Shown: positions 4,684 to 21,670, numbered from the stretch's first letter. The stretch is DNA of 64,000 nt from an uncultured Coriobacteriaceae bacterium (GCA_900539345.1 UQBS01000006.1:13904-77903), one strand, 5' to 3'. Made by a program: numbers and translations. Notes: generated by a model not told the origin, from the sequence alone.

Positions 4684-4786
4684 GTAAGCTTGTGCGCCGG
4701 GGCGGGTGTCATTTCCCCCTGATGCCCGCCCCGCCCGGCGCCTTGCCCCCCCTTTGAACATATATACGAGAAGAAGGAGAACCAAG

Positions 4787-6610
4787 ATGAACACGATCTC
4801 CCGCCGTTCCATGATCTGTGGTGCCGCCGGCATGGCCGCCCTGGCAGCCGCTGCACCCACCGCTGCGCTCGCCGACGTCGACCACAACCTCGAGGTCACC
4901 GACGGCAGCCCCATCGTGGGCGCCGTCGACCCCTCCGGCATCGAGTGGGATTACGAAGCCGACATCGTCATCGTCGGCGCGGGCGGCGCGGGTCTTCCTG
5001 CCGGCGTGCGAGCCCTTGACGAGGGCGTCTCGGTCCTTTTCGTTGACGCCAACTACGACTGCGGTGGCCGTTGCGCCCTGTCCGGCGGCAACCTGCACTC
5101 CGGCTGCGGCACGAAGATCCAGGAGAAGTACGGCATCGAGGACTCTGCTGACAAGTATTACGAGGACCACACGACTCCCGAGTGCATCAACTCCATCTAC
5201 GGCGACCGCAACGTGGTGCGCTCCGTGGCCGATTACATGGCCGAGGCCTACGAGTACATCCTGGACAAGGGCGTGCTCGTGAAGGACGTCGAGCCCATGC
5301 ACCTGCCCGACTACACCGAGGGCGGCGACCAGCCTGAGACCGTGGGCCGCTGGACCTACGCCGACCAGACCACCGAGGACTGGGTTTCGTATGCCGACTA
5401 CCTGTCTCCCTCTCAGGACGGCGCCTACCAGGATCGTTGCGGTATTGCCATCACGCGTCCGCTCGAGCGTGTCGCCCGCCAAGCCGGCGCTCAGTTCCTG
5501 CTGAACTACCACATGGACAAGATTGTGCGCGAAGGCGTGCTCGAGGGCCGCGTGCTGGGCATCCAGGCCCACTACTCGCCCACCATTCTCCCTGGTGAGG
5601 ACGGCCCGCTTGCTCCTCTCAGTCCCTTCTCCGACGGCAACATCGACGAGACCAAGGAGACGGTGAACGTCCGCGCCAACAAGGCTGTCATCATCGCCAC
5701 GGGCGGCTCCACGGGCAACGTCTACTTCCGCACCATGATTGACCCGCGTCGCGGTGTCGAGTACGACTGCACCTCGGGCGACCCGTTCTGCCCCAAGGAC
5801 GCCTCGGGAGAAATCGCGGCCATGGCCATCGGCGCCTGCTTGGGCGACATTGCCAATCAGGTCATTGGCGACTCCTTCCTCAGCAAGGCGGCCATGATCG
5901 GCACGCAGTACACCGACTCCTTCGCCACGGTGCAGCCCACCTCGCCTCTCTTCAAGCTTTCCCGTGCCACGGGCCTGCGCGTCTATGACTGGTCGAACCT
6001 GTTGCAGGTGAACATGCTCGGCGAGCGTTTTGCCAACGAGGCCGACTCCTCCACCGACTGGAACGGCGCTGCCCTCGCCAGCGTCTTGACCGTTGACCCC
6101 TCTGACGGCGAGCTGCACCGCTATGGCGGCCCCCTCTGGACCATCTTCGACTCCAAGGCTGTCGAGCGCGAGGGGTGGGTTATCGACGACACGACCGTTG
6201 ACCGCGAGGACGGCCGTTTCTTTGAGGCCGACACCCTTGAGGAGCTTGCCGAGAAGGTTGTGAACAAGTACTACGAGCAGATCAAGATGGACCCCGAGAC
6301 CCTCGTGGCCACCGTCAAGCGCTACAACGAGCTGGTGGACAAGGGTGCTGACGAAGACTTTGGCAAGGAGGGCATGACCGACAAGATCGAGGTCGGTCCC
6401 TTCTACGCCGCTTGGTCCACGCCTGGCTTCCACGATTGCACCACGGGTCTGCGTGTGAACCGCAAGATGCAGGTCATGGACCTGTTCGGCCAGGTCATCC
6501 CCGGTCTGTACTGCGGTGGCGAGTCTTCGGGCGGCATGCGCATCCACGGTCTGGGTCGCGTCATTACGACCGGCTATATCGCGGGCCTGTACGCCGCAAC
6601 TGAGGAGTAA
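4787..6610 (+). CDS. Tat-exported FAD-dependent oxidoreductase, paralogous type
   Basis: Leader MNTISRRSMICGAAGMAALAAAAPTAALA. DIVIVGAGGAGLPAGVRALDEGVSVLFVD and C-terminal GLYCGGESSGGMRIHGLGR. SD AAGAAGGAGA lies before the ATG at 4787. Confidence 0.85.
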   Translation: MNTISRRSMICGAAGMAALAAAAPTAALADVDHNLEVTDGSPIVGAVDPSGIEWDYEADIVIVGAGGAGLPAGVRALDEGVSVLFVDANYDCGGRCALSGGNLHSGCGTKIQEKYGIEDSADKYYEDHTTPECINSIYGDRNVVRSVADYMAEAYEYILDKGVLVKDVEPMHLPDYTEGGDQPETVGRWTYADQTTEDWVSYADYLSPSQDGAYQDRCGIAITRPLERVARQAGAQFLLNYHMDKIVREGVLEGRVLGIQAHYSPTILPGEDGPLAPLSPFSDGNIDETKETVNVRANKAVIIATGGSTGNVYFRTMIDPRRGVEYDCTSGDPFCPKDASGEIAAMAIGACLGDIANQVIGDSFLSKAAMIGTQYTDSFATVQPTSPLFKLSRATGLRVYDWSNLLQVNMLGERFANEADSSTDWNGAALASVLTVDPSDGELHRYGGPLWTIFDSKAVEREGWVIDDTTVDREDGRFFEADTLEELAEKVVNKYYEQIKMDPETLVATVKRYNELVDKGADEDFGKEGMTDKIEVGPFYAAWSTPGFHDCTTGLRVNRKMQVMDLFGQVIPGLYCGGESSGGMRIHGLGRVITTGYIAGLYAATEE

Positions 6611-6899: not shown

Positions 6900-7946
6900 A
6901 TGCCGTGCAAGAATGACTGCAGGCGAATCCGTTGGTCTGATGGCCGGGAGAACCTCGTCATCGCTGCCATGGCTGTGCTTGTGGTTGTGCTCGCCGCCGT
7001 TTCGCTGCTCTTGGGTCGCTTTCCCATCAGCCCGGCCGAGGCGCCCGCCATGCTGGTAAACCAAGTGGCGCCCGACCTCATCGAGCCGACCTGGACCAAT
7101 CAGCAGGCCTCCATCTTCTTTAATGTGCGTCTCCCGCGCATCGTGCTGGCCCTCTTAATCGGCTGCTGCCTGGCAAGTGCTGGTGCGGCGTTCCAGGGAA
7201 CGTTCCAGAACCCCCTCGTCTCCCCCGACCTGCTTGGTGCCTCGCAGGGTGCGGCCCTGGGCGCGGCGATTGCCATCCTCATGGGCCTGTCTTCGATTCA
7301 GATCTCGATGTGGGCGTTCGTGTTCTCGCTCATCACGGTCGGTCTCGTGGTGTTCATCTCCATGCACGCGCGGGGCAATCCCATCACCGTCGTCATTCTG
7401 GCCGGCGTTATGGTGAGCTCGCTGTTCTCGGCCGGTGTGTCTTACACCAAGCTCGTCGCCGACCCCAATGACACGCTTCCCGCCATCACCTACTGGCTCA
7501 TGGGCAGCCTCACCGGCGCCAAGTTTGCCGACATCAAGCTGGTCATCGTGCCTATGTTCATCGGCCTTGTGACATTGCTTGCCCTGCGCTGGCGCATCAA
7601 CATCCTCACCATGGGCGACGACGAGGCCGCCACGATGGGCGTGAACGCCCGTTTGGTGCGCTTGCTCGTCATGGTGGCCGCGACGCTCGTCACTGCCTCG
7701 AGCGTGGCGGTCTCGGGCATGATCGGCTGGGTCGGCCTTGTCATCCCGCACTTGTGCCGCATGCTCATCGGTTGTGATTACCGCAAGCTTCTCCCGGCTT
7801 CCATGGTCATGGGCGCAGGCTTTTTGCTGCTTGTCGACGACGTTGCCCGTGTTGCCACCACGACGGAGATTCCTATCGGCATTCTCACCGCATTTGTGGG
7901 CGCGCCCTTCTTCCTCTACCTCATCACGAAGGGCAGGAGGATCTAA
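6900..7946 (+). CDS. ABC importer permease, FecCD/BtuC family (iron-chelate, heme or corrinoid type)
   Basis: 348 aa, polytopic. Typical FecCD blocks: RLPRIVLALLIGCCLASAGAAFQGTFQNPLVSPDLLG and EIPIGILTAFVGAPFFLYLI. SD GGGGGAGGG lies upstream. Confidence 0.9.
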   Translation: MPCKNDCRRIRWSDGRENLVIAAMAVLVVVLAAVSLLLGRFPISPAEAPAMLVNQVAPDLIEPTWTNQQASIFFNVRLPRIVLALLIGCCLASAGAAFQGTFQNPLVSPDLLGASQGAALGAAIAILMGLSSIQISMWAFVFSLITVGLVVFISMHARGNPITVVILAGVMVSSLFSAGVSYTKLVADPNDTLPAITYWLMGSLTGAKFADIKLVIVPMFIGLVTLLALRWRINILTMGDDEAATMGVNARLVRLLVMVAATLVTASSVAVSGMIGWVGLVIPHLCRMLIGCDYRKLLPASMVMGAGFLLLVDDVARVATTTEIPIGILTAFVGAPFFLYLITKGRRI

Positions 7947-8740
7947 TGCCTATCGAGATCGAGCATTTGAGCTTTTTTTACGGCGCGCGTGAGATCCTGC
8001 ACGACATCAGCCTCACGATTCCCGACCGCACGCTTGTCAATGTGCTGGGCCCCAATGGCGTGGGCAAGTCGACGCTGTTCCGATGCATCCTGTGCCTCAA
8101 TGCCAACTACACCGGAACGATCACGGTTGACGGGCGCGACCTGCGCAAGATGCCCATCCGCGAGCGCGCCAAGCTCATCTCCTATATCCCGCAATCGCAT
8201 TCCAGCGTCTATAACTACGAGGTCATCGACGTCGTGCTCATGAGCACGGGAACCGACCTGGGCCTGTTCAACAACCCGCGCAAGGCCCACAAGGACCGCG
8301 CGATGGAGGCCCTCGACAAGATCGGTATCGCCCATTTGGCGCATCGCCCCTACACCGGGATCTCGGGTGGCGAGCAGCAGATGGTGCTTATCGCGCGCGC
8401 CTTGGCCCAGAACGCCAAGACCATCGTGATGGACGAACCCACAAGCGCCCTCGACTACGGCAACACCGTGCGTGTGCTGTCGTGCGTGCGTCAGCTTGCC
8501 CGCGACGGCCTTTCCATCATCCAGTCGACGCATCAGCCTGACCAGGCGTTTCTGTATGCCGATAAAACCCTCGTCATCTATGACGGGCGCGTGAAGGCTT
8601 TCGGCGACCCCAAGGACGTGGTCACGGCCGGGCTCATCTCCGATATCTACGGCGTCGACGTCGAGATTAACTCGCTCTACGACGACCGCGTGCGTGTGTG
8701 CGTGCCGACACATGAGATTGAAAACATGCCCGCGCGTTGA
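7946..8740 (+). CDS. ABC transporter ATP-binding protein (FecE/BtuD-like)
   Basis: Walker A GPNGVGKST, signature ISGGEQQM, Walker B IVMDEPTSALD. TAATG overlap with the permease stop. Confidence 0.92.
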   Translation: MPIEIEHLSFFYGAREILHDISLTIPDRTLVNVLGPNGVGKSTLFRCILCLNANYTGTITVDGRDLRKMPIRERAKLISYIPQSHSSVYNYEVIDVVLMSTGTDLGLFNNPRKAHKDRAMEALDKIGIAHLAHRPYTGISGGEQQMVLIARALAQNAKTIVMDEPTSALDYGNTVRVLSCVRQLARDGLSIIQSTHQPDQAFLYADKTLVIYDGRVKAFGDPKDVVTAGLISDIYGVDVEINSLYDDRVRVCVPTHEIENMPAR

Positions 8741-8824
8741 CACCTCGTTGCTCTGCCCGCCTGCGCCTTGGGGCGCCGGTGGTTTTCATAGGGGCCTTCG
8801 GGCCCGTTGGTTTGAGAGAAAGGA

Positions 8825-9952
8825 ATGCGGATGGTAAAGAACGCAAGTCGCCGCACGTTCGTCGTGGCCCTGTGCTCGGCTGCCTTGGCATGCGGCTTGG
8901 CCGTTGCGCCTCTGGCTTTTGCCGACACAGCAGCTACGAGCGACAAGGCAAGCGCCGCTCAGACCGGTGAGACGCGCGAGTTTACCGATTCTCTGGGCCG
9001 CACCGTCGAGATCCCGGCTGAGATCACGGCCATCGCACCCTCGGGCTTCCTGCCTCAGCAGGTGCTCCTGACGGTCGCCCCTGAGAAGATGGTTGTCCTG
9101 GCCAGCTCCCTCACCGACTCGCAGGCTCACTTCTTCGGCGAGCAGTATGCGGGCCTCGAGGAGGTCGGCGCCATCTTCGGCGCCAAGGGCGACTTCAACC
9201 GCGAGGCCGTTGCTGCTTCCGGCGCTCAGATTGTCATCGACGTGGGCGACACCAAGAAGGGCATGGCCGAGGACCTCGACGCCCTTCAGGAGCAGCTCGG
9301 CATCCCCTGCGTCCACATCTCCAGCAACCTGGCCACCTACGGCGACTGCTATCGCGCCCTGGGCGAGCTGCTCGGTGTTGAGGAGCGCGCCAACGAGATC
9401 GCTGACTACTGCGACGCCGCCTACAAGGAGATTTCCGACGTCATGGAGACCATCCCGGTTGAGGATCGCGTCGACGTGCTGTACCTCAGCGGCGAGGACG
9501 GACTGTCCTGCGTGGCCAACAGCTCCTATCAGGCCAACGTCGTCGACATGGTCTCCGATAACATCGCCGTGGTTGACGACCCCTCCGGCAAGTCCAACCA
9601 GACGAACATGGAGCAGATCGTCAGCTGGGACCCCGAGTTCATCATCTTCGCCCCGAAGAGCGCCTATGACCTCGCCGGCACCGACGCCACCTGGCAGACG
9701 CTGACCGCCATCGAGGGCGGCAACTACTGCGAGGTTCCCAGCGAGCCTTACAACTGGCTCAACGGCCCGCCTTCTGTGAACCAGGTCCTGGGTATGCAGT
9801 GGCTGCCCCGCGTGCTGTATCCCGAGAAGTTTGACGACGACATGTATGAGACTGTCGCCGCGTACTACAAGACTCTGTACCAGTACGACCTGTCTGAGGA
9901 CGAGTTCAACGAGATCACCGCTCGTGCCGTCCCTGTGGTCGACCAGAAGTAG
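8825..9952 (+). CDS. ABC transporter substrate-binding protein (periplasmic binding protein type 2, iron-chelate/corrinoid class), probable lipoprotein
   Basis: Leader MRMVKNASRRTFVVALCSAALACG. The body reads like the Peripla_BP_2 family (EIPAEITAIAPSG, QIVSWDPEFIIFAP). Third gene of the transporter operon. Confidence 0.82.
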   Translation: MRMVKNASRRTFVVALCSAALACGLAVAPLAFADTAATSDKASAAQTGETREFTDSLGRTVEIPAEITAIAPSGFLPQQVLLTVAPEKMVVLASSLTDSQAHFFGEQYAGLEEVGAIFGAKGDFNREAVAASGAQIVIDVGDTKKGMAEDLDALQEQLGIPCVHISSNLATYGDCYRALGELLGVEERANEIADYCDAAYKEISDVMETIPVEDRVDVLYLSGEDGLSCVANSSYQANVVDMVSDNIAVVDDPSGKSNQTNMEQIVSWDPEFIIFAPKSAYDLAGTDATWQTLTAIEGGNYCEVPSEPYNWLNGPPSVNQVLGMQWLPRVLYPEKFDDDMYETVAAYYKTLYQYDLSEDEFNEITARAVPVVDQK

Positions 9953-9988: not shown

Positions 9989-10030
9989 AACCGTCGTCCG
10001 TGTCTCAAGGGGCATGGGCGGCGGTTTTTT
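9989..10030 (+). terminator. intrinsic terminator after the ABC importer operon
   Basis: AACCGTCGTC pairs with GGCGGCGGTT (two G-U pairs), followed by T6 at 10025-10030. Confidence 0.6.
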
Positions 10031-10191
10031 GCACTCTTAGAGAGAAATGCCAGTTCAGAGCCTACACAACAATGCATTAAAGCGTCGTAGAGCTTCATCT
10101 GGAGCCGCCAAGGGGCAAAAATCTGGAAACAGATGCGATGAATGTGCAGGCGCCGATGGGGTCGGTGCAAGACAGGCAAAGAGGAGCGACG

Positions 10192-11346
10192 ATGGACGAT
10201 AAGACGATGTGCACGGCGATTGACGACGAGGCTGCCGAGCTCGACGCAGCCGACGCGCGTGTCGAGCTCGCCCCTGCGGAAGACGCAACGGTCGCCCCCG
10301 AGGTCGCCGAGACTGCTGAGACCCCCGAGGAAGTGGCCGCCCGCGAAGCTGCCGAACTTGCCGAGAAGCGCGAGCGCGAGGCCCGCGAGGCCGCGGAGCG
10401 TGCGGCTGCCGACGAGGCTGCCCGCGAGGAGCGTGCCCAGGCTGCTGTCGAGAAGCTCTCGAAGGGCGCCGGCTGGGCCGCGCAAGCGGGCGTCTACTAC
10501 GACGCGTCCCATGGTGCGGTAAAGGCAACGAGCGTGTCCTCGGCAAAGCAGGCAGGCCGTCCCGCCGACGACGAAGACGCTGCTACCGACGAGCTGACCG
10601 AAGACGAGCTTGTCGCCGACCTCACCGACGTTGCGCGCGAGGCCGGCTCCCTCGACGACATCCAGGCCAGCGAGGCTGACGCCGGCTACATCGACCCTGT
10701 CGTCTTCGGCCGCATGGTCGCCAAGGTCACCGAGGCCGTGACGCGCAACCCTTTGCAGCGAGAGCTGTTCTACAAGGTCCTCTCCTTCTGCCAGGAGTCC
10801 AAGCCCCTGCGCGAGATCGAGCAGATGGTCATGGCGCTGCCGGGTTTCGAGCGCACCTCGGCCAACGCCTACCATTTCATCGCCGTCATGGAAAACGCTG
10901 GCGGTCTGGAGCGTTTCGAGCTTGACGACGAAGGCGATGTCGTGGATGACGCCCGCAAGGCCGGGCTTACCGAGGACGAGATCGACGACCTTGTGGCCGA
11001 GTACGCGTTCATGACCACGCCGGCCGGGCAGGCCGTGGTGGAACAGCACACGCCCCGCGCGCGCATCATCGAGCTTTTGGGCCTCGTGCCCGAGCGCCGC
11101 GACACCTACATCGAGCTCATGGAGTTCCTGGCCGAGGAGCCTCGTACCTACAACGAGGTCACGCAGCTGCTCGACGGCCGCGACGTGCTCTGGCACCTGG
11201 ACTCCAAGGGCAATCCTGAGCGTATGCAGCCCAGCGTCTTCTTGGACAAGCTGCATGACGCCGCCGCCATCGAGTGGCACCAAGGTTGGCAACTTAGCGA
11301 GGAGGGTCGCACCTACCTCGATGAGTTGAAGAGGGTCCAAAACTAG
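10192..11346 (+). CDS. hypothetical cytoplasmic protein: acidic Ala/Glu-rich N-terminal half plus two tandem winged-helix-like modules
   Basis: ATG at 10192 with SD GAGGAG 5 nt upstream. No signal peptide or TM segment. The stop lies 47 nt before the molybdoenzyme start. No family recognised by eye. Confidence 0.6.
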   Translation: MDDKTMCTAIDDEAAELDAADARVELAPAEDATVAPEVAETAETPEEVAAREAAELAEKREREAREAAERAAADEAAREERAQAAVEKLSKGAGWAAQAGVYYDASHGAVKATSVSSAKQAGRPADDEDAATDELTEDELVADLTDVAREAGSLDDIQASEADAGYIDPVVFGRMVAKVTEAVTRNPLQRELFYKVLSFCQESKPLREIEQMVMALPGFERTSANAYHFIAVMENAGGLERFELDDEGDVVDDARKAGLTEDEIDDLVAEYAFMTTPAGQAVVEQHTPRARIIELLGLVPERRDTYIELMEFLAEEPRTYNEVTQLLDGRDVLWHLDSKGNPERMQPSVFLDKLHDAAAIEWHQGWQLSEEGRTYLDELKRVQN

Positions 11347-11393
11347 GCGCTCTTCCGTATACGTACGTAAAAGCAAGGGAGAGGGAGGAAAGC

Positions 11394-14267
11394 ATGGCAG
11401 CAAACACCAACGTCACACGCCGCAGCTTTGTCAAGGCAGCAGCGCTTGCCGGCGCGGCGGTGGCCATCGGCACCCAGATGAGTGGTTCTCTCGTCGAGGC
11501 GCCTGCGGCATACGCTGACGAGGCTGACGACGTCAAGAAGGTCTACACCTCTTGTCACGGCTGCATCCAGATGTGCCCGGCCGTCGCCACCATCGAGAAC
11601 GGCGTGGTCACCAAGCTCGAGGGCGACGACCGCGCCCCCGTGTCTAAGGGCTCTCTGTGCATCAAGGGCCTCAACCAGCTGCACACCATGTACAGCCCGC
11701 GTCGTATCCTGCACCCGCTGAAGCGCGTTGGCGAGCGCGGCACGACCGACTTCGAGGTCATCTCCTGGGACGAGGCTATCGAGCTTGCGGCCACCCAGAT
11801 CAAGGATGCCATCGACCAGTACGGCAACTACGCCTTCTTCTCCTCCGTCGGCGGCGGCGGTTCCTACTCGTTCATGGAGGCCATGACGCTTCCCATGGCG
11901 TTCGGCTCCCCCACCGTCTTTGAGCCTGGCTGCGCCCAGTGCTACCTGCCCCGTTGGTCCCTGTCGAAGCTCTTCTACGGCGGCGACGACCAGTCCATCG
12001 CAGACAACGCCGTCCAGGAGATTTTCCGCGACGAGGAGAACAACAAGACTGAGCTCGTCGTGATCTGGGGCGCCCAGCCCTCCGTCTCCGAGACCGCTGA
12101 GTCCGGCCGCGGCATGGCTGAGCTGCGCGCTCGCGGTGTCAAGACGATCGTCGTTGACCCGAACTTCTCGCCCGACGCCGCCAAGGCCGACGTGTGGCTC
12201 CCTGTTCGTCCCGAGACCGACACGGGCGTGCTTCTGTCCTGGTACCGCTACATCTTCGAGAACAAGCTCTACGACGAAGAGTTCACCAAGTACTGGACGA
12301 ACCTGCCCTTCCTGATCGACCCCGACACCAAGCTTCCCGTCAAGGCCCAGGAGCTCTTCCCCGATTTCCAGCAAACTACGCCCGAGAACACCCCGGCGTA
12401 CGTGTGCTACGACCTCAAGACCGGCGCCGTTGCTCCCTTCGAGTACAGCGCTCCTGCTGACTCCGCCGTTGACCCCGAGATCTTCTGGGAGGGCGAGTAC
12501 GAGGGCAAGACCTACAAGACCGCCGGCCAGATCTACAAGGATCAGGCTGAGCCCTGGACCCTCGAGCACACTGAGGAAGTCACCTGGGTTCCCGCCGACC
12601 TCAACGAGAAGGCCATTAAGATGTACGCCGAGAACTGGGGCGGCATCGCCAACGGCGTCGCGGCTGACATGAGCGAGTCTGCCTCCCAGGTGCCTCTGGG
12701 CTGCATGGGCCTGGATGCCATCATGGGCCGCATCAACAAGCCCGGCGTCACCATGACGCAGAAGGGCGGCGGCTACTTCGCCACCATGACCGACACCGGT
12801 GAGACCGTCAACACTCGCCCGGTCACCTACAACAACGGCTTTAGCGGCATGTTCTCCGACATGTACGGCGTGGGTGCCGTCATCGGCATGTCCGACGCTG
12901 AGAACGAGGAGCGCATCAAGGCTCTGGGCGAGGCTATGCCTGACTCCCAGAAGACCCTCAACAAGCTGCTCCAGGACCGTCTGGGCATGAAGTACCACAA
13001 GGGTCTCTACGCTTGGTGCCACTCCCACATCCCTACGGTGCGCGAGGCCATCGCCACCGGCGAGCCCTTCAAGCCGCGCGTGTGGTTCGACATGTCGGGC
13101 AACAAGCTCGCGATGCTCGGTAACGCCAAGAGCTGGTACGACGTCTTCCCCGAGGTGGACTTCATCATCGGCCAGTACCCGATGCTGACCTCCTTCCACA
13201 TTGAGGCCGCCGACCTGGTCTTCCCGCTGCGCGAGTGGCTCGAGGAGCCCATGGTCAACATGACCCAGCTCGACACCCAGTGGCTGCAGAACGAGTGCAC
13301 CCACATCGGCGAGACCGTCTCCCACTCCATTCCTGCCGCACAGGTCATCAAGAAGTGCCAGGAGCTGTGGGGCGGCTCCATCCCCGGTGGCCTCGAGCTC
13401 GCTCCCGGCGTCTCTGCCTACCTGGGCAACGCCACCGAGCAGGAGGTCAAGGACTCCACCGCGCAGACTCTGGGCGCTGCTGACTGGGATACGCTCCAGT
13501 CCGACATCGACGCCTACGTGCCTTGCGTGACGCCCGACTACTTTAACTACCTGCAGCATGAGCAGCTCTGCGACGACGGCCTGCCTTCGGGCTTCGCCAC
13601 CGAGTCGCGCAAGGTCGAGGTCTACTGCCAGATGCTTCTGCGTATGGCCCGCAACGGCTACCCGTTCTGCTACCCCGAGCCGCAGGAGGCCTGCGACGAC
13701 TACAGCCCGATCTGCGCGTTCATCGAGCCTGCCGAGTCGCCCATCAACGACGAGGCCAACGGTGAGGGTGGCCAGTACCCGTTCATCCTGACCTCCGGCC
13801 GCGTGCCGTACTTCCACCATGGCACTATGCGTCACGCTGCGTTCTCCCGTGAGCTCTATCCTGCGCCTCACGTGCGCATCAACCCGCGCTCCGCTGCCGA
13901 CCTCGACATCGCCGACGGCGACTGGCTCAAGATCACGAGCCGTCGCGGTGAGATCGCCGGCATCGCCGAGCTCACCGAGGGCGTGGCCCCCGGCGTTGTC
14001 TGGATGGAGCGCTACTGGAACCCCGAGTGCTTCGACGAGTCCATCCCCGCAGAGCAGCGCTCCGCTGGCTGGCGCGAGATGAACGTCAACGTGCTGACCA
14101 AGAACGATGCCCCGTTCAACGAGGTGTACGGCTCTTACACCAACCGCGGCTTCACCGTGCGCGTGGAGAAGGGCGACAAGCCTGCCAACGTTTGGATTGA
14201 GCCCGAGGAGTTCCAGCCCTTCATGCCCACGCTCCAGAGCGAGCCCAAGACTGAGGATGTGTTCTAA
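11394..14267 (+). CDS. Tat-exported molybdopterin (bis-MGD) oxidoreductase catalytic subunit, DMSO-reductase superfamily
   Basis: 957 aa. Leader MAANTNVTRRSFVKAAALAGAAVAIG. N-terminal 4Fe-4S motif CHGCIQMCx27C. C-terminal molybdopterin dinucleotide-binding block ILTSGRVPYFHHG...INPRSAADLDIADGDWLKITSRRGEI. Confidence 0.9.
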   Translation: MAANTNVTRRSFVKAAALAGAAVAIGTQMSGSLVEAPAAYADEADDVKKVYTSCHGCIQMCPAVATIENGVVTKLEGDDRAPVSKGSLCIKGLNQLHTMYSPRRILHPLKRVGERGTTDFEVISWDEAIELAATQIKDAIDQYGNYAFFSSVGGGGSYSFMEAMTLPMAFGSPTVFEPGCAQCYLPRWSLSKLFYGGDDQSIADNAVQEIFRDEENNKTELVVIWGAQPSVSETAESGRGMAELRARGVKTIVVDPNFSPDAAKADVWLPVRPETDTGVLLSWYRYIFENKLYDEEFTKYWTNLPFLIDPDTKLPVKAQELFPDFQQTTPENTPAYVCYDLKTGAVAPFEYSAPADSAVDPEIFWEGEYEGKTYKTAGQIYKDQAEPWTLEHTEEVTWVPADLNEKAIKMYAENWGGIANGVAADMSESASQVPLGCMGLDAIMGRINKPGVTMTQKGGGYFATMTDTGETVNTRPVTYNNGFSGMFSDMYGVGAVIGMSDAENEERIKALGEAMPDSQKTLNKLLQDRLGMKYHKGLYAWCHSHIPTVREAIATGEPFKPRVWFDMSGNKLAMLGNAKSWYDVFPEVDFIIGQYPMLTSFHIEAADLVFPLREWLEEPMVNMTQLDTQWLQNECTHIGETVSHSIPAAQVIKKCQELWGGSIPGGLELAPGVSAYLGNATEQEVKDSTAQTLGAADWDTLQSDIDAYVPCVTPDYFNYLQHEQLCDDGLPSGFATESRKVEVYCQMLLRMARNGYPFCYPEPQEACDDYSPICAFIEPAESPINDEANGEGGQYPFILTSGRVPYFHHGTMRHAAFSRELYPAPHVRINPRSAADLDIADGDWLKITSRRGEIAGIAELTEGVAPGVVWMERYWNPECFDESIPAEQRSAGWREMNVNVLTKNDAPFNEVYGSYTNRGFTVRVEKGDKPANVWIEPEEFQPFMPTLQSEPKTEDVF

Positions 14268-14869
14268 TGAGAAACTGCCTTGTTATCGATCTGGACCGCT
14301 GCTCCGGCTGCGACTCCTGCATCGCCGCTTGCAAGCATGAGAACGGCATCGGCCTGGGCGTGTACCGCAACACCGTGGACCGTATGGGCCCCATCGGCGA
14401 GTGGCCGCGTCCGCAGCAGTACTGGCTGCCCCGCCAGTGCCAGCAGTGCGATAACGCCCCCTGCCTTGAGGTGTGCCCCACCGGCGCCACCTACCGCGAG
14501 GACGAGTACGGCCTGATTGTCATCAACCAGGAGCAGTGCATCGGCTGCCAGCAGTGCATGACTGCCTGCCCCTTTGACGCTCGCTGGTTCGACGCCGCCA
14601 ACTCCGTCGTCGAGAAGTGCGATGGCTGCATTGACAGGCTCAAGAAGGGCGAGAAGCCCGCATGCGTGCACAACTGCTGCTGCGGTGCCCGTCTCTTCGG
14701 TGACCTCGACGATCCCGAGTCCGATGCCTCGAAGGCACTGGCTGCGGCCGACCCCGCGTCGCTGCACCAGTTCAACGACGAGGTCGGCGCCTCGCCCCGT
14801 ACGGTTTACATCCTGTCGGAGAAGGTATGCCCCTGGCAGGACGAGAAGACCGCCTATCGCGCTCGCTAG
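14267..14869 (+). CDS. 4Fe-4S ferredoxin-type electron-transfer subunit (DmsB/NrfC-like)
   Basis: Four Cys clusters: CSGCDSCIAAC, CQQCDNAPCLEVCP, CIGCQQCMTACP, CDGCIDRLKKGEKPACVHNCC. TAATG overlap with the catalytic subunit stop. Confidence 0.9.
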   Translation: MRNCLVIDLDRCSGCDSCIAACKHENGIGLGVYRNTVDRMGPIGEWPRPQQYWLPRQCQQCDNAPCLEVCPTGATYREDEYGLIVINQEQCIGCQQCMTACPFDARWFDAANSVVEKCDGCIDRLKKGEKPACVHNCCCGARLFGDLDDPESDASKALAAADPASLHQFNDEVGASPRTVYILSEKVCPWQDEKTAYRAR

Positions 14870-15039
14870 TGTGATGCGTCGTTCCCTTTGAGCGGGATGC
14901 GTTGAATGATTGATGGGGGCGAGGTTGCCTGTGTGGCGCCTCGCCCCCATGACACAAAGGGACGGGTGCAATGTGTTGTTCCCGGACCTTGCAAGATGGA
15001 GCTGCCGCTTGTGCGGCGTTGTCACGGAGAGGAACCACA

Positions 15040-15846
15040 ATGAGCGAGAACACGATGGCCGAGACGCTAGATACCCAGGCCGAGGCCACCTCCGCCGACG
15101 CCGCCGCACAGGCTGAGCAGGCTGCGACTGCCGTTCCCGAGGAGGTCGCCGCTGCCCTTGAGGGCCGCGCCGCTTTCTATGAGACGCTCGCAGGCCTTTT
15201 TTGGATGCCGCTTACGGCCGAGCAGGTAGAGGCCATGGCCGGCCAGGATTTCTCCGCCTATGCCGAGCTCAACGAAGACTTCGCCGACGGCGTGAACGAC
15301 ATCACACGCTACCTGCGCAAGCGCAACACCGGTACGCGCGACGAGATGGCCGTGGACTTCACGGGCACCTTCACGGGCATCAAGACCTACGAGGGCAAGA
15401 CGGCCGTGCCGTACAAGTCGGTCTTTACGAGCGAAGATGGCCTTATGTACCAGGAGGGTTTCCGCGAGGTGTACCACGCCTTCAAGGCCGAGGCCATCAA
15501 GAAGCGCGCCGGGCTCGACTACCCTGACGACCACATCTCGTTTCTCTGCCAGTTCATGGCCATCATGAGCCGCCGTACGCTCGAGGCCCTGCAGGCCGGC
15601 GACTACGACAAGGCTGCCCACGACGTGAAGGCCTCTGCCGACTTCCTCGACAACAACATCCTCTCCTGGTACGACCAGCTCATGGAGCGTTCGCTGTTGC
15701 TCATCAAGACCCGCTTCTACAAGGGCGTCATGAAGCTTGCGCGTGGGTTCTTTACGCTCGACCGCGAGACGCTGGCCGACCTGGCCGATGAGGTTGCCGA
15801 GCTTGCCGAGGCGGCCCAGAAGACCGAGGGGACCCAGGCCGAGTAA
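15040..15846 (+). CDS. TorD/DmsD-family redox-enzyme maturation chaperone (probable)
   Basis: AAFYETLAGLFWMPLTAEQVEAM and DDHISFLCQFMAIM resemble the TorD family. Start set to the ATG at 15040 after SD GGAGAGG. Position downstream of the Mo enzyme fits. Confidence 0.72.
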   Translation: MSENTMAETLDTQAEATSADAAAQAEQAATAVPEEVAAALEGRAAFYETLAGLFWMPLTAEQVEAMAGQDFSAYAELNEDFADGVNDITRYLRKRNTGTRDEMAVDFTGTFTGIKTYEGKTAVPYKSVFTSEDGLMYQEGFREVYHAFKAEAIKKRAGLDYPDDHISFLCQFMAIMSRRTLEALQAGDYDKAAHDVKASADFLDNNILSWYDQLMERSLLLIKTRFYKGVMKLARGFFTLDRETLADLADEVAELAEAAQKTEGTQAE

Positions 15847-15959
15847 CCAGGCGCGCCTGCTTGCCCGAGGTGCCCGAACATAGACTTTAGCCGCCAGGTT
15901 CACCCTCTCCTCTTTTTGCGTACAATTATGTGCGTACATTCAAGGGGAGAGGGTTTCGC

Positions 15960-17540
15960 ATGGAGCAGACGGACGCTTCTGGGGTGAAGCGGAGCTTAAC
16001 CGAAGAGTTGGCGACGCGTTGGTCGTCGCTGCCGTTCATGGCGTTTGGCGTGTGGACCGCTTGGTCGTCGCTTACCTATTCTGGGTCGCTGTGGCTTTCT
16101 GACAACGAGGTCAACGGGTTCTACCTGTCGTTGCTGTTCGTCATCTCCACCATGACATTTGCCGTGGTGTTCCTTGGGGCGTCGTTCTTTGCCCGCCGCC
16201 ACGCTGACAAGGGCGATGTCTCGGATCGCGTCGTCATGGGATTCGGCCTCTTGGCGGCCTTGGGCGCTTTTCTTATCATTTTGGCCGGCCCGTACTGGTT
16301 GGGCGTTTCCCGTCGGGCAACCTCTGTGTTTGTGGTCGGAGCCATCATGACGGGAGCTGGCACGGCCGGCATCGGTCTGCGTTGTGCGACGCTCTATGGT
16401 GGCCTACCGCCGCGCAGGGCGCTCATCACAGCGGCATTGTCGCAGCTTGTGGCCTCATTCATCTATTTTGTCGTACTGGCGACCCCCGCATGGGCGCCCA
16501 TTGCCCATGGCCCCTCACTCACCCATATCCTGGCGTTCACGCTGCTGCCGGTGGTCGCCGCCTGGCTTTCATGCATCAAGCCGTCGCACGAGTCGCTCTT
16601 TGAGGAGAACGTCCGTCAGTATCCGGCAAACAGCGGCGCGCTTCCCGCAGCGTTCTGGCGTTTCTCGGCCTTCGCGTTTGCGCTTGCCCTCATCACCACG
16701 TTCATCCGCTCGTCCATGGTGACGGTGAGCGCGCTTGCCAACACGGTCGAGGGCAACAACGTGCTGCAGCTCCTACGCATCGCGATGGTGCTCGTCGTGA
16801 TCGCCTGGACGCTGCGTTCCGACGCGCAGGGGTTCGACTTGGGGCGCGTTTGCTCGCTCGCCACGGTGCTTGCCGCCGTGGTTACCGCCTGCTCGGCGGC
16901 TTTGGGGGGAACCACCAGCGCACTCAGCGTGCTCGTGTACTTTGCCAGCAGCATCTTCGAGTTCTTCATGTGGTGCCTGCTCGCCTTCATCGTGTATCAG
17001 AAGCACATCTCGCCGCTTGCCGTGTTCGGTTTCGGCCGAGGACTCTTTATGCTTGGCTGTGCCCTGGGCTGGGCGCTTGGCATTGTCGTGATGCCGAGCA
17101 TCGAGGCGGCATCTGCGCAGGTAGTCGTAAGCATCGTGCTTGCTGGCACCATCATCATCTTGTGGCTCGCCCTGTTCTCGGGCAAGGACTACGAGCGTCT
17201 CTTCTCCACGGTGGGCGAAGACGAGCTGTCGCTGGAGGACCTCTTTGAGATTGACCAGCGCCTTGATGAAGGCACCGAGGCGGGACAGCCCAAGTCGGAG
17301 CGCAAGGGCAAGTTCGGCCAGGCGGTCGAGGCCATCGCCGCTCGCAACGCCCTTTCCGCACGTGAGGCCGAGGTACTGCGCTGCCTCGCCATGGGATACG
17401 GCTCAGAGCGCATCGCCCAAACCATGGGCGTCAAGGTGAACACCGTGCGCACCCATACCCACAACGTCTACGTCAAGCTCGACGTCCACTCCCGCGAGGA
17501 GCTCATGCGCCTCGTCGACGACGAAGTTGCAGGGCAGTAG
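15960..17540 (+). CDS. LuxR-family transcriptional regulator with N-terminal polytopic membrane domain
   Basis: Many hydrophobic segments, then SAREAEVLRCLAMGYGSERIAQTMGVKVNTVRTHTHNVYVKLDVHSREELMRLV. ATG at 15960 after SD GGGGAGAGGG. Confidence 0.85.
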   Translation: MEQTDASGVKRSLTEELATRWSSLPFMAFGVWTAWSSLTYSGSLWLSDNEVNGFYLSLLFVISTMTFAVVFLGASFFARRHADKGDVSDRVVMGFGLLAALGAFLIILAGPYWLGVSRRATSVFVVGAIMTGAGTAGIGLRCATLYGGLPPRRALITAALSQLVASFIYFVVLATPAWAPIAHGPSLTHILAFTLLPVVAAWLSCIKPSHESLFEENVRQYPANSGALPAAFWRFSAFAFALALITTFIRSSMVTVSALANTVEGNNVLQLLRIAMVLVVIAWTLRSDAQGFDLGRVCSLATVLAAVVTACSAALGGTTSALSVLVYFASSIFEFFMWCLLAFIVYQKHISPLAVFGFGRGLFMLGCALGWALGIVVMPSIEAASAQVVVSIVLAGTIIILWLALFSGKDYERLFSTVGEDELSLEDLFEIDQRLDEGTEAGQPKSERKGKFGQAVEAIAARNALSAREAEVLRCLAMGYGSERIAQTMGVKVNTVRTHTHNVYVKLDVHSREELMRLVDDEVAGQ

Positions 17541-17787: not shown

Positions 17788-19092
17788 ATGGGTGTGTACC
17801 AGTCAGATTATTGGCAGTCCTGCGGGTGGGGAATGAACCGGCGAGAGACGCAAAGTGGGACATACCATCCGTTCTTGCCCGACAAGCTGGCAGGGCTCGA
17901 TATCATGCTGACACCCGAGGCGGTCTCGGCCGTGACGCAGGCGCAGTCTGCCGTGTTGCTGCTCAACCAAGAGGCGCGCTTTCTGACCAATACAGAACCT
18001 CTGGCGCGCCTGCTGTTGCGTTCTGAGGCGTTGGCCTCCTCTCGCATTGAGGGTTTGCAAATGAATGCCGGCAGGCTGCTCGAATTTGAGGCGCTTGACG
18101 AGCTGGGCGTGTCGCATCGACTCGATGGTGTGGAGGCCGCGGTCATGGCAAATATCGCCGCCATGAGCGACGCGGTGGATAGCATCGGGGCCGGCGACTC
18201 GATTACGGTGAATGACATTCGTGCTGTAAATGCGACCTTGCTTCAAGGGTCGCACCTTGAGGATGAGGGCGGAGTGCTGCGCACGATCCAAAACTGGATC
18301 GGCGGCAACAATGTCAACCCGGTTGGCGCTGCCTACGTACCACCCCGGCCCGAACATGTCCCGGAGCTGATGGAAGACCTCGCCCAATTCTGCAACACGT
18401 CGCCCTTGCCGGCGATTGCCGTGGCGGCGATAGCGCACGCTCAGCTCGAAACGATTCATCCGTTTGCGGATGGCAATGGGCGGACGGGTCGTGCCCTTGT
18501 GCACATGTTGTTGCACCGTGCGGGCCTGACTCCGAACAGCGTCCCTCCCATCTCGCTTGTGCTGGCAACGGACAAGGCACGCTACATCAACAATCTCCCA
18601 GCGTATCGATGCGATGACGGGCGATATGAAGGGGCAGATGAAAAGGCCGCTGCTCTGCAAGGGTGTATCAGCGATTGGGTGGAGTACTTTGCCAACGCGG
18701 TGCTGCTTGCTTGCGGGCGCGCGCAGGAGTTTGAGCACCGTATTGCCGATATTCAGGAAGAATGGCGCGGCCGCGGCACGATTCGCAAGAATTCGTCTGC
18801 CGATGTGCTCATCGAGGTCCTGCCAGGCAACCCTGTTGTCAGCGTCGTTTCGGCCGCTCGCCTGACAAGTAAAAGCGTCCAGGCTGCGCGCCTGGCGCTC
18901 AAGCAGCTGGAGAGCATGGGCATCCTGGTGCAGAATGCCAAGAACCGCAAGAGCAACATCTATGTCGCGCAAGAAATTTTGGATGCATTCACGGCGTACG
19001 AGCGAGCTCTGGTGGTGCCTGGCGGCGATACGTCTTCAGAGAAACCCATGCGACCCGTGCCTCTGCGCGTCCCGCGAGACCGCCGGCCATAA
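17788..19092 (+). CDS. Fic-family protein (AMPylase-type), class II with N-terminal inhibitory helix and C-terminal winged-helix-like tail
   Basis: Fic motif HPFADGNGRTGRAL. Inhibitory motif SSRIEG matches (S/T)xxxE(G/N). The start is uncertain (17788 or the ATG at 17833). GC3 is visibly lower than in neighbouring genes. Confidence 0.88.
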   Translation: MGVYQSDYWQSCGWGMNRRETQSGTYHPFLPDKLAGLDIMLTPEAVSAVTQAQSAVLLLNQEARFLTNTEPLARLLLRSEALASSRIEGLQMNAGRLLEFEALDELGVSHRLDGVEAAVMANIAAMSDAVDSIGAGDSITVNDIRAVNATLLQGSHLEDEGGVLRTIQNWIGGNNVNPVGAAYVPPRPEHVPELMEDLAQFCNTSPLPAIAVAAIAHAQLETIHPFADGNGRTGRALVHMLLHRAGLTPNSVPPISLVLATDKARYINNLPAYRCDDGRYEGADEKAAALQGCISDWVEYFANAVLLACGRAQEFEHRIADIQEEWRGRGTIRKNSSADVLIEVLPGNPVVSVVSAARLTSKSVQAARLALKQLESMGILVQNAKNRKSNIYVAQEILDAFTAYERALVVPGGDTSSEKPMRPVPLRVPRDRRP

Positions 19093-19172: not shown

Positions 19173-19601
19173 TTAGGCCTCGACGGCGACGAGCACGTCG
19201 GTGCTCTTCACGAAGGCGACGGCAGGCTTGCCGACCTCGAGGCCAAGCTCCTCGATGGCAGCGTTGGTGATGGAGCCGGAGACGGTCAGGCCGTACTCGG
19301 TGGTGATGGTCACATGGCCGTTGACGGCGCCCTTCTGGATTTTGGTGACCTCGCCGCAGAACTGGTTGCGGGCAGAGATCTGCAGGTGCTGGCCGGCCTC
19401 GGCGAACATGACGTTGGTGGCCTTGACCACGGCGATGGCGGGCTTGCCGGCCTCGAGGCCCAGATCCTCGACGGCCTCGCAGGTGATGTCGGCCTTGATG
19501 TTCTTGCCGGGGGCAACCTCGATGGCGACGACGGCGTTGACGGCGCCCTTCTCGACGGAGACGACGGTGCCGGCGAACTGGTTGCGGGCGGAAATCTTCA
19601 T
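19173..19601 (-). CDS. mop: molybdenum-pterin/molybdate-binding protein, di-Mop (two TOBE domains)
   Basis: 142 aa with two repeats: MKISARNQFAGTVVSVEKGAVNAVV... and LQISARNQFCGEVTKIQKGAVNGHV... The ATG at 19601 is preceded by GAAAGGAAG. The longer ORF to 19811 was trimmed. Confidence 0.88.
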   Translation of the reverse strand: MKISARNQFAGTVVSVEKGAVNAVVAIEVAPGKNIKADITCEAVEDLGLEAGKPAIAVVKATNVMFAEAGQHLQISARNQFCGEVTKIQKGAVNGHVTITTEYGLTVSGSITNAAIEELGLEVGKPAVAFVKSTDVLVAVEA

Positions 19602-19900
19602 GATGCGCTTCCTTTCGATGGTTGCGGGCGGCTGCCACTGCAAGTGCCGCGCCTGGCTGACGAGGGGAACTATAAGCCATGGGGTTTGGCGCTCCGGTCT
19701 TCGCGCCAACATTTGAGTTCTGTTGTACCAACGCGTGCCAATCAGCAATCGAACGTGCGTAGAAAAGACTCGATTTGTCCGATTGCCAATCTGGCAATGC
19801 CATTCTGTCATTCCATATTGAGGCCTGTGCCAGCGACTTTATATAATGGAGTTAGTATCGAGCCCTGTGTGGGCGCACGTTCGGCAGAAGGGAAGACATC

Positions 19901-21670
19901 ATGAGCAAGAACATGCGACTCTTTGGTACGCGCGGATACGGTGCTGCATTTGCTGGAACTCTGATCGCCCTGACGCTCGGCGGGGCATGCATGATGGGGA
20001 CGTTTGCGGCAACGGCACAGGCCGACACGGCAGCCACGGGCTTGGGCGGCATCGCCGCGGCCCAGGGCGCAGCCTCACCGCTTGCGGGCATCGGCGACGG
20101 CAAGGCTTCCCCCATCGCCTCCCTTGAGGACGAGGACGTGCTGCTTGCCACCTACAGCAATGCGGCACAGGGGTTCTCGCTGCTTGTAGACGCCGGTTCC
20201 TTTACGGTGAGTGAGGGCCAGGGTGCGGGCGCGACGTTCGTCCTGAACGCCGACGCGTCCTCCTACTTTGCCGTCTCCTACGTCGCTGACTGGGAAGGCA
20301 CGCCCGATGTGGGCGAGTACCTGGAAGAACAGCTCTGGCACGGCCAGATGGAGCATGGTGACTCCTATGTGCAGGTGAGTGCTGACGGCGGCGAGGTCAT
20401 CTACCTGGCTGGTGTGGGTGCCTATGCGTGCGCCTATGGGTACGTCGACTCCTCGACGGGTCAGAACATGACCGTCATCCAGGCCATGGAGCCCCGCTCT
20501 GACGGCAACGCTGTGTATTGGACGTTGTGCACGAGCGACGAGTCTGCCGAGCAGGTCGCCACGGCGCTCGTCTGGGCCTCGGCCACCTTCCGCGTGGGTG
20601 CGGACGCCTATACGGGCAGCAACATGTGGTGCGCGCCCTCTGACCTGGCGCAAAGGCCTTCAGGAAGCACATACTCGCTGGTAGATGACGCGGGCAACAC
20701 TGCCGCGACTCCCGCTCCTGCAACTTCGGCCGATACGACGACTCCCACTCCTGCCGCCTCGGCCGACACAGCGGCCCCTGCACCCGCCCAGCCCGCCGCA
20801 ACCCCCGCCCCTGCGCAGCCTGCGCCCACCCAGACGTCCGCAACTGCTGGAACCTACCAGATCGTGGACTATGACGGCGGGTACTTCACTGTCGCGCTGC
20901 CTCAGGGTTGGTCCATCCAGACATCGGGGGAGGGGGCCGGCTTCACCTTCGAGGCGTTTGACCCAGCCAACCCTGCCGTGCGCATCGTCTACTACGGTGA
21001 GCTGGCATTTAACCTCAACGAGCAGATGCGCGAGCTGTTTGCCCTCTCCACCTCTTCCGGCGATGCGACGCTCGACCAGCTGTACACGCTGTACGCCAAC
21101 CTTCCCGTGCTCGACCCCTGCACGGTTGCCAATGCCGTGAGCCTGCTGCCTGCCTATACGCAGCTCACGCTCGACATGGGCGGCGTCGACGACGGCACGG
21201 GCCTCATGGTTTCCTCGGCCCAGGTCACCTCGAGCATACCGGTGTCGTATTACTCGGCCTTCCCGGGCATGGCGGGCTATGTGCGAGATGACGCCCTGGT
21301 GAGCGCCGAACTCACGCTGCTCGATGGCACGGCCTGCAGGGCGGACTTCTTGGGCAGTGCGATTGCCTTGGGATATGAGGGCGGCTACGGCATGGCTGCC
21401 GTCATGGGAATGTGGGGCATCATTGCGCCTGCCGACATGTACGACGACGTCGTGGCCCAGCTTGCTCCCTGCGTGGGCACCCTGTCCTTCTCGGATGAGT
21501 ACGTTGCCCAGTGCAACGCTGCAAACGACGCCATCGCAGCCGCCGCTCTCGATCGTTCGGCTGCCAACAACGCCGTGATGGACCAGGCGCTGCAGGACTT
21601 TGATGACTACATCATGGACCGCGACCGCTTCACGTTCTCCGACGGTTCCCAGCTTGTCATTCAGCGTTAA
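19901..21670 (+). CDS. secreted hypothetical protein with a Pro/Ala/Thr-rich linker
   Basis: Signal-like N-terminus ...AAFAGTLIALTLGGACMMGTFAATAQA. Central low-complexity TPAPATSADTTTPTPAASADTAAPAPAQPAATPAPAQPAPTQ. SD GAAGGGAAGA lies upstream. Confidence 0.7.
   Translation: MSKNMRLFGTRGYGAAFAGTLIALTLGGACMMGTFAATAQADTAATGLGGIAAAQGAASPLAGIGDGKASPIASLEDEDVLLATYSNAAQGFSLLVDAGSFTVSEGQGAGATFVLNADASSYFAVSYVADWEGTPDVGEYLEEQLWHGQMEHGDSYVQVSADGGEVIYLAGVGAYACAYGYVDSSTGQNMTVIQAMEPRSDGNAVYWTLCTSDESAEQVATALVWASATFRVGADAYTGSNMWCAPSDLAQRPSGSTYSLVDDAGNTAATPAPATSADTTTPTPAASADTAAPAPAQPAATPAPAQPAPTQTSATAGTYQIVDYDGGYFTVALPQGWSIQTSGEGAGFTFEAFDPANPAVRIVYYGELAFNLNEQMRELFALSTSSGDATLDQLYTLYANLPVLDPCTVANAVSLLPAYTQLTLDMGGVDDGTGLMVSSAQVTSSIPVSYYSAFPGMAGYVRDDALVSAELTLLDGTACRADFLGSAIALGYEGGYGMAAVMGMWGIIAPADMYDDVVAQLAPCVGTLSFSDEYVAQCNAANDAIAAAALDRSAANNAVMDQALQDFDDYIMDRDRFTFSDGSQLVIQR

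Follow-up and report, generated by a model that had tools for sequence, protein, structure and literature searches.

A derived and stable anchor-less variant of an uncharacterised molybdoenzyme family in Eggerthellaceae

The operon and its nearest characterised relatives

Here, we examined a stretch of 64,000 nt from an uncultured Coriobacteriaceae bacterium (GCA_900539345.1 UQBS01000006.1:13904-77903; the whole stretch is hereinafter the window) and, within it, a single operon on the + strand (10192-17540) that encodes an exported-type molybdoenzyme together with a ferredoxin subunit, a maturation chaperone and a membrane-spanning regulator. Bacteria of the family Eggerthellaceae carry tens of exported reductases that act on dietary, host and drug molecules, and it is the wiring of such enzymes to the membrane that decides the energy yield. 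The operon described here encodes no membrane anchor, and comparison with related loci shows that this state is a derived loss, stable and under selection, in an uncharacterised enzyme family. Five genes, denoted X, A, B, D and R in order, make up the operon (G+C content of ~63% across the region), with the following features, all on the + strand.

10060-10098, +: candidate promoter/operator block upstream of X (GCCTACACAACAATGCATTAAAGCG..GTAGAGCTTCAT), recognised by conservation across relatives
10192-11346, +: X, conserved cytoplasmic protein of 384 aa, function unknown; alternative start at 10138
11394-14267, +: A, catalytic subunit of 957 aa binding the bis-molybdopterin guanine dinucleotide cofactor (bis-MGD), assigned from Pfam and NCBIfam domains and orthologues
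11394-11516, +: predicted twin-arginine translocation (Tat) signal peptide of A, residues 1-41 (TIGR01409 match)
11553-11660, +: FS0 [4Fe-4S] motif of A, C54-x2-C57-x3-C61-x27-C89 (Pfam Molybdop_Fe4S4 over residues 48-101)
11940-11942, +: codon of Cys183 (EPGCAQC183YLPR), predicted Mo ligand from profile alignment with PsrA
14267-14869, +: B, ferredoxin subunit of 200 aa (Fer4_11, four Cys groups)
14870-15039, +: B-D spacer, occupied in relatives by a dmsC/nrfD-type anchor gene; contains a hairpin and the ribosome-binding site of D
15040-15846, +: D, maturation chaperone of the TorD/NarJ family, 268 aa (PF02613, E 1.6e-22)
15930-17540, +: R, membrane-spanning LuxR-type regulator with ~11 transmembrane (TM) segments and a C-terminal GerE helix-turn-helix (HTH); the public gene call starts at 15960

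Given that the X-A gap is 47 nt long with a strong ribosome-binding site before A, and that a terminator-like hairpin and the conserved block precede X, the transcription unit probably consists of X-A-B-D, with R adjoining. The same gene order recurs in at least 8 independent assemblies from several studies and, therefore, is no assembly artefact. A first-pass annotation of the locus had listed A, B, D and R, all of which stand, whereas X, a fifth conserved gene of the operon, had been omitted.

The Pfam domains Molybdop_Fe4S4, Molybdopterin and Molydop_binding are all present in A, with PF00384, PF01568 and PF04879 exceeding their gathering cut-offs, which places the protein among the catalytic subunits of the dimethyl sulfoxide (DMSO) reductase superfamily. 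The Tat leader and the N-terminal FeS motif attributed to it earlier are both borne out: the signal comprises TRRSFVK, a hydrophobic core and an AYA|DE site of the signal-peptidase-I type with no lipobox cysteine, and is identical or near-identical in all anchor-less relatives, and the FS0 cysteines are invariant in an alignment of 20 orthologues. Cys183, likewise invariant in these orthologues, is opposite Cys173 of Thermus PsrA (2vpw) in a profile alignment. Cys173 is the molybdenum ligand in that structure, and Cys183 is the corresponding predicted ligand of A. An AlphaFold model of A built from the 20-sequence alignment reached a predicted local distance difference test (pLDDT) score of 44, too low for a fold search.

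The 16 Cys of B fall into four groups, for four [4Fe-4S] clusters, and all groups are conserved among relatives, as expected of the four-cluster ferredoxin subunit that had been proposed; the best NCBIfam matches are NrfC, TtrB and ArrB, each below its cut-off. B itself lacks a signal peptide and, therefore, presumably leaves the cytoplasm together with A. The assignment of D to the TorD-like chaperones holds (PF02613 score of 80.5 bits against a cut-off of 22.2; best NCBIfam match the TorD model, at 70 bits and thus below its cut-off of 132). Its previously given start, 14971, is that of the longest open reading frame (ORF), but 15040 is the most likely start, given the conservation of a GGAGAGG ribosome-binding site and the length of 268 aa in public gene calls; the other coordinates needed no change. 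In R, a Kyte-Doolittle scan detects 11 hydrophobic segments, followed by GerE at residues 474-528, confirming the polytopic LuxR regulator described before and giving it the layout of the 10-12-TM LuxR class, namely, a polytopic N-terminal domain and a C-terminal HTH next to a metabolic reductase operon. Regulators of this type flank A in most related loci, and members of the class have been described as substrate-specific activators of neighbouring molybdenum enzymes (Dong et al. 2022, PMC9734109). The 12-TM regulators DadR, HcdR and CadR characterised there share with R the polytopic domain and the GerE HTH beside a molybdenum enzyme operon, a likeness of architecture and position rather than one drawn from sequence comparison.

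For comparison with characterised enzymes, the sequences of Dadh, Cadh, Hcdh and acetylene hydratase were taken from the alignment underlying Figure 6 of Maini Rekdal et al. 2020 (PMC7028382) and checked: Hcdh has its published length of 1193 aa, and the score of acetylene hydratase equals that from the PDB search. With A as the phmmer query, Cadh scored 200.6 bits, Dadh 190.3, Hcdh 172.8, PsrA 136.7, Fdh 110.7 and acetylene hydratase 89.6, so that A is closer to the Dadh type than to the other characterised bis-MGD enzymes compared. The distance is nevertheless large. The BLASTP alignment with Cadh spans the full length, 996 aa, at 24.7% identity, whereas those with Dadh and Hcdh reach 30.1% over only 312 aa (N-terminal). 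Compared with the published thresholds of >30% identity to Dadh for inclusion and of >=75% identity with 90% coverage for the presence of a known dehydroxylase (PMC7028382), A falls short of both, exceeding 30% over the N-terminal third only. Thus, the nearest characterised enzymes are the E. lenta-type catechol dehydroxylases, at ~25% identity. The earlier assignment to the catechol dehydroxylase class stands in the loose sense that these are the best characterised relatives and that the radiation has been called putative catechol dehydroxylases (PMC7028382), but not at the level of identity.

A shares with Cadh, Dadh and Hcdh the Tat export signal, bis-MGD and FS0, and all four have a four-cluster ferredoxin as partner and a 10-12-TM LuxR regulator encoded nearby. 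By contrast, the FS0 and ligand-region motifs differ (CHGCIQMC in A versus CRGCGKMEC at FS0), and the three dehydroxylases are encoded with a membrane anchor, whereas the operon of A has the ferredoxin but no anchor. The motif EPGCAQCYLPR does occur in uncharacterised sequences of E. lenta A2 and Clostridium ljungdahlii (Figure 7 source data, PMC7028382); the wider clade had, accordingly, already been sighted, although not studied.

Among solved structures, PsrA (2vpw) comes nearest, with E 6e-39 across the N-terminal 295 residues. The similarity is confined to the N- and C-terminal domains, with a short C-terminal stretch, and residues ~300-780 of A have no counterpart. With the PsrABC/PhsABC enzymes, the operon shares the position of the Cys ligand and a B subunit of the NrfC/TtrB/ArrB/PsrB type, and its ancestor had an NrfD/DmsC-type C; the difference is that PsrABC/PhsABC retain the C subunit and the window operon has none. 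The scores of A lie far below the NCBIfam equivalog cut-offs: 163.8 versus 694 bits for PhsA (NF012032), in the N-terminal third only, 163.4 versus 777.7 bits for DmsA/YnfE (TIGR02166) and 71 versus 1600 bits for ArrA (NF041714). Together with the identity of ~25% to Cadh, these scores show that A clusters tightly with no characterised enzyme, which leaves standing the first-pass view of a reductase of unknown substrate.

Membrane partners of related operons and loss of the anchor

The first-pass annotation had reported no NrfD/DmsC-type anchor gene in the operon, and our searches uphold the absence, including that of an anchor fused to another subunit or encoded in a missed frame at 14.8-15.0 kb. 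The 173-nt B-D spacer contains only ORFs of up to 68 aa, none hydrophobic, and 14850-15050 holds no hidden small membrane ORF. A tblastn search with eight DmsC/NrfD proteins of relatives against this spacer and those of nine anchor-less loci returned short chance matches only, and A, B and D have no hydrophobic segment apart from the signal peptide of A. Nor is there an orphan anchor elsewhere in the 64-kb window. With tblastn, no homologue was found of the membrane partners encoded by relatives, which we denote C (DmsC/NrfD), G and H (NapGH-like) and F (YedZ/MsrQ-like), and a hydropathy scan of all window ORFs revealed no other redox membrane protein, the only polytopic proteins being the three LuxR regulators, ABC permeases and one CmpB-type protein. 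Thus, the operon departs from the PsrABC/DmsABC type, in which an NrfD/DmsC anchor is co-encoded with A and B, although C is present in orthologues.

The relatives of A are numerous. Uncultured human-gut Coriobacteriales/Eggerthellaceae metagenome-assembled genomes (MAGs) match it at 98-99% identity, and the species is common, with 501 members in the 90% cluster of A and a single X sequence on 540 contigs. Across Eggerthellaceae, orthologues span 71-99% identity; those at 71-87% come from Gordonibacter, Adlercreutzia, Eggerthella sinensis, E. guodeyinii, Raoultibacter, Rubneribacter, Xiamenia and Slackia. Paralogues at 45-61% identity extend to termite-gut and soil Actinomycetota MAGs.

The gene order of 89 loci, mapped by tblastn, was set against a neighbour-joining tree of A. 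X-A-B-C-D-G-H with R, the order that is both most frequent and deepest in the tree, is ancestral; in it, C is of the DmsC/NrfD type, G is a NapG-like ferredoxin with a Tat signal and H is a NapH-like membrane iron-sulfur protein. A large clade from Adlercreutzia, Eggerthella and Raoultibacter instead has X-A-B-D-F-R, F being a Ferric_reduct/MsrQ-like membrane protein, and a few termite-gut MAGs keep G and H, with C absent. Among the 68 loci with complete downstream sequence, 27 encode C with G and H, 21 encode F, 6 only C, 3 only G and H, and 11 no partner. Apart from L054, where F is encoded upstream on the opposite strand, the latter 11 comprise the window clade, L007, L026 and L045 (ten loci in all). 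The membrane modules are thus interchangeable within the family, as C, GH, F or combinations of these. The F protein (~227 aa, conserved histidines; L005:12236-12919, with equivalents in ~21 loci) replaces both C and the NapGH pair. To our knowledge, the pairing of an MsrQ(YedZ)-like protein with an AB dimer of the DMSO reductase family has not been described before. Paralogous A-B-C-D-G-H operons lie directly upstream of X-A-B-... operons in several genomes (L028, L040, L078 and L080), and given this adjacency, tandem duplication seems to be one route of family expansion.

Within the superclade that includes the window, the reduction is stepwise. C, G and H are all encoded by L016, whose A is 82% identical; in L003, L014 and L090 (83-85%), only C remains; and L007 and L026 (87%) and the window clade (93-100%) have no partner. 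Orthologues of A that are 72-85% identical carry DmsC/NrfD between B and D, and on the tree of A the anchor-less loci are nested within C-bearing clades. The window lineage therefore lost G and H and then C, leaving no remnant, and the tree of A is compatible with either one or two losses of C. The window clade includes at least five species representatives (L010, L011, L041, L060 and L088). A paralogous operon, L045, 61% identical and located in the same MAG as L010, has the order R-X-A-B-D, without a partner, followed by unrelated genes. Because its sister L047 has C, a single genome holds at least two independently anchor-less operons.

Despite the loss, the operon bears the marks of purifying selection. 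The pairs used to estimate the ratio of nonsynonymous to synonymous divergence (dN/dS) were drawn among anchor-less members, so that the divergence post-dates anchor loss, and yielded 0.06-0.12 for A, 0.04-0.13 for B, 0.06-0.14 for D, 0.12-0.25 for X and 0.09-0.18 for R. Given these low values, and the RR motif, FS0, Cys183 and all 16 cysteines of B, which are intact in anchor-less members, the operon is in all likelihood still functional and under selection.

The ferredoxin subunit has, however, evolved differently. The ratio dN(B)/dN(A) is 0.9-1.6 between anchored operons (L003 and L090, both anchored, are 90% identical in both A and B) versus 1.8-2.7 in every pair with an anchor-less operon, including pairs within anchor-less groups; D displays no such split between anchored and anchor-less operons, and A is the most conserved component. 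At 117 positions, B is conserved in 12 or more of the 14 C-type operons; the window clade departs from this pattern at 22 of them and L007/L026 at 16, compared with only 9 in the F-type operons, which are more distant. The evolution of B relative to A, about twofold faster than in anchored relatives, and the altered positions indicate that B lost, or changed, a constraint imposed by the anchor.

A second pattern concerns the end of the Tat signal of A. A lipobox (e.g., MAGC or LTGC) ends the signal in all 21 F-type operons with a readable A N terminus and in all four C-less operons that keep G and H, and predicts a Tat-exported, lipid-anchored A in those relatives. The lipobox loci recorded are L005, L015, L017, L019, L020, L023, L024, L027, L028, L031, L032, L037, L039, L043, L049, L052, L056, L064-L066, L075, L079 and L084. 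C-containing operons are mostly of the AxA type at this site, and the window clade, L007, L026 and L045 have kept the AxA type, with no cysteine.

Electron supply to a putatively exported enzyme

How electrons reach such an enzyme was the question raised by the local genes. We consider the chances about even that the operon encodes a working, substrate-inducible reductase of the respiratory type that receives electrons in trans from a membrane quinol dehydrogenase encoded elsewhere. R would sense an extracellular compound and switch on X-A-B-D; D would hold the Tat signal of A during insertion of bis-MGD; A, with Mo on Cys183 and with FS0, would fold with B; and the pair would be exported by Tat. 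Outside the membrane, electrons would pass via the clusters of B to FS0 and then to Mo, where the substrate, probably organic, would be reduced. The electrons would be taken from the trans partner in a contact that is probably loose or transient, by analogy with Shewanella ArrAB and CymA. TorD-type chaperones, hitch-hiking on the Tat pathway and four-cluster ferredoxin subunits are the basis for the chaperone, co-export and B-FS0-Mo steps, respectively.

Supply in trans is suggested by the history of the lineage, which has deleted the NapGH-like pair and then the DmsC/NrfD-type anchor, as well as by the interchangeability of the modules, the lack of them from two operons in one genome and the continued selection on the operon. 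Given that the second, paralogous operon (L045) in the same MAG is also anchor-less, a genome-wide solution to electron supply is implied. The Ynf subunits of E. coli can reportedly substitute for Dms subunits, so that docking across paralogues is plausible. NapGH- and MsrQ/YedZ-type proteins, which relatives encode in the place of the anchor or besides it and of which the window has none, are candidate types of trans partner.

A precedent exists in arsenate respiration, where arrC is missing from some arrAB clusters and ArrAB of Shewanella is fed by CymA, a quinol dehydrogenase of shared use whose gene lies elsewhere (Duval et al. 2008, PMC2500031). ArrAB, a Tat-exported AB pair from a clade with and without an NrfD-type C, is a functional analogue only: it is not homologous to the window enzyme at the family level, no CymA-like cytochrome was identified for the window operon in the 64 kb inspected, and soluble AB is retained by the periplasm in Shewanella, whereas the window organism is presumably a monoderm actinobacterium.

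Several observations weigh against supply from a quinol dehydrogenase in trans. No candidate partner was identified in the 64 kb of the genome that were inspected. A homologue search with the C protein of the sister lineage recovered 12 clusters, none abundant, and no abundant relocated orthologue at >=53% identity; the two clusters with inspected context (L090 and L091) lie inside A-B-C-D operons. This search covers orthologues, distant paralogues being beyond its reach, and any partner would therefore have to be a distant paralogue or another type of protein. Furthermore, the fast evolution of B continues within the anchor-less clade, a pattern that relaxed constraint would explain as well as adaptation to a new partner would. 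This continuing change points to a loose or transient contact and not to a tight complex. Finally, loss of C seems to go with lipidation elsewhere in the family but not in the window clade. The most puzzling point is, thus, an AB pair with neither lipobox nor anchor on a presumed monoderm cell, given that such an Eggerthellaceae organism presumably has no periplasm to retain soluble AB.

Alternatively, and in our view improbably, AB could be retained on the cell surface through its Tat signal, left uncleaved, or through the cell wall, with electrons bypassing a dedicated quinol dehydrogenase, either through an extracellular electron-transfer chain, as for anchor-less exported flavin reductases, or through contact with an exported formate dehydrogenase or hydrogenase. 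We know of no precedent for flavin-based electron transfer into a four-cluster ferredoxin subunit, which counts against such a bypass. An A subunit with neither lipobox nor anchor would nonetheless suit it, as would the continued relaxed evolution of B, which argues against a tight docking partner. Moreover, three FAD_binding_2 reductases in the window have no local membrane partner, so that a general supply route for exported reductases must exist; most such flavin reductases are soluble and fed from a membrane chain (Little et al.). However, the AYA|DE site is the same as in C-anchored orthologues, cleavage of the signal has been reported for E. lenta Hcdh, distantly homologous at ~25% identity (PMC7028382), and no components of extracellular transfer or of the other proposed routes were seen in the 64-kb window.

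We see only a slim chance that AB is non-respiratory, i.e., a detoxifying or electron-dumping enzyme or an oxidative dehydrogenase that needs no coupling to the quinone pool. Loss of both quinol-coupling modules speaks for this reading, as does the lack of an equivalog or close characterised relative of A. Without an electron partner for B, however, there could be no redox turnover; strict conservation is seen in the four-cluster wire and in FS0; and the orthologues at 83-85% identity are classic quinol-coupled ABC enzymes, with A the most conserved component of the operon.

That the operon is a decaying remnant without an active enzyme is very improbable. The lost subunit does count as indispensable in PsrABC-type enzymes (PMC2500031), and B has diverged faster, but no fewer than five species-level genomes have all five ORFs intact, and between anchor-less members the dN/dS of every gene falls within 0.04-0.25, which led us to reject pseudogenisation; the RR motif, FS0, Cys183 and the 16 cysteines of B are conserved as well. 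We give almost no credence to an anchor that escaped notice because it is fused to another protein, is encoded by a short or overlapping ORF or falls into an assembly gap: the spacer of L026 does contain a run of N, but that of the window is continuous without a hydrophobic ORF, A, B and D lack hydrophobic segments beyond the signal peptide, and independent assemblies have the same structure, with spacers of 148-440 nt, none resembling an anchor.

To return to supply in trans, a broader proposal is tentative and rather doubtful: at least two AB modules would have been uncoupled from quinol-oxidising anchors, would use a shared membrane hub or a non-quinol extracellular route, and would be held at the surface by neither a protein anchor nor lipidation. 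If true, this would be a Gram-positive counterpart of the CymA hub of Shewanella. Anchor-less AB reductases and TM-LuxR regulators are both already known, and the system is, therefore, not categorically new. It is, rather, a useful and testable case, a natural experiment in which the same enzyme, 83-85% identical, occurs with and without its anchor, in a species present on hundreds of human-gut contigs. Such orthologue pairs offer a route to the shared electron input of exported reductases in a Gram-positive gut bacterium, and the missing lipobox prompts one to ask what keeps a Tat substrate on the cell when it is neither anchored nor lipidated. The swapping of DmsC-, NapGH- and YedZ-type partners, the lipobox pattern and the linked gene X provide handles on the radiation of these enzymes.

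Gene X, non-coding elements and flanking genes

X adjoins A in 82 of the 89 loci, most of the exceptions being truncated at contig ends; it is found down to 45% identity of A and, in some loci, is placed after C. The N terminus is acidic, Ala/Glu-rich and variable, and the C-terminal ~210 aa are conserved, with two similar helix-rich repeats that look like winged-helix domains. Profile searches of Pfam, NCBIfam and PDB gave no significant match; there is a weak match to the Fur winged helix (E 0.22). The AF2 model has a pLDDT of 57 overall and of ~80 for residues 135-219, and its Foldseek matches are all winged-helix proteins, none significant (E >= 0.18). The homologue search was filled by near-identical sequences of the same species and yielded no diverse set. 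X may be a co-regulator or a maturation factor.

The block at 10060-10098 is near-invariant in five species-level relatives, with variable flanks, and a terminator-like hairpin with a T-run lies 5' of it, at ~10005-10030. A promoter/terminator scan of the operon gave no signal above the shuffled expectation, and an Rfam scan of the whole 64-kb window gave no match, hence no molybdenum cofactor (Moco) riboswitch. The B-D spacer contains a strong GC hairpin (GGGGGCGAGG...CCTCGCCCCC; 14915-14948, +) with a fold energy of z = -4.5 and no T-run. Its stem is kept across the clade, with a compensatory A:T to G:C double change in L011, and it may act as an intra-operon attenuator or an mRNA-stabilising element; across lineages, B-D and C-D spacers are not alignable. 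Within the B-D spacer of some strains lies a palindromic repeat of ~100 nt, in one copy or two (GTTGCGGAACCT...GCTCACGTACATCTAGTACGCATCGC...GAGAACCCGCGTTT; L041:10474-10913, L011:10474-10696 and L088:5566-5818), which resembles a small mobile element or one of the repetitive extragenic palindromic (REP) type. The repeat is absent from the window (0 matches at up to 3 mismatches).

Beyond the operon, the contexts compared are not conserved between species. Two more membrane-spanning LuxR regulators are encoded in the window, each adjoining FAD_binding_2 (fumarate-reductase-like) flavoproteins (1347-2855, 2956-4683 and 4706-6610, +; 23760-25259 and 25377-27077, -). Their layout is that of the reductase arsenals typically found in Eggerthellaceae, and no membrane partner is encoded locally for any of them. 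Genes for a FecCD permease, an ABC ATPase and a Peripla_BP_2 binding protein (6900-9952, +) lie directly 5' of X, a position that they occupy only in the window clade among the upstream contexts inspected. Downstream of R are a gene for a Fic/DOC-domain protein and two for large proteins (589 and 596 aa) without a Pfam family (17788-19092, 19901-21670 and 21861-23651, +) and, ~1.6 kb from R, one with a TOBE domain (molybdate-binding, Mop-like; 19173-19811, -), for which the public gene call is 142 aa.

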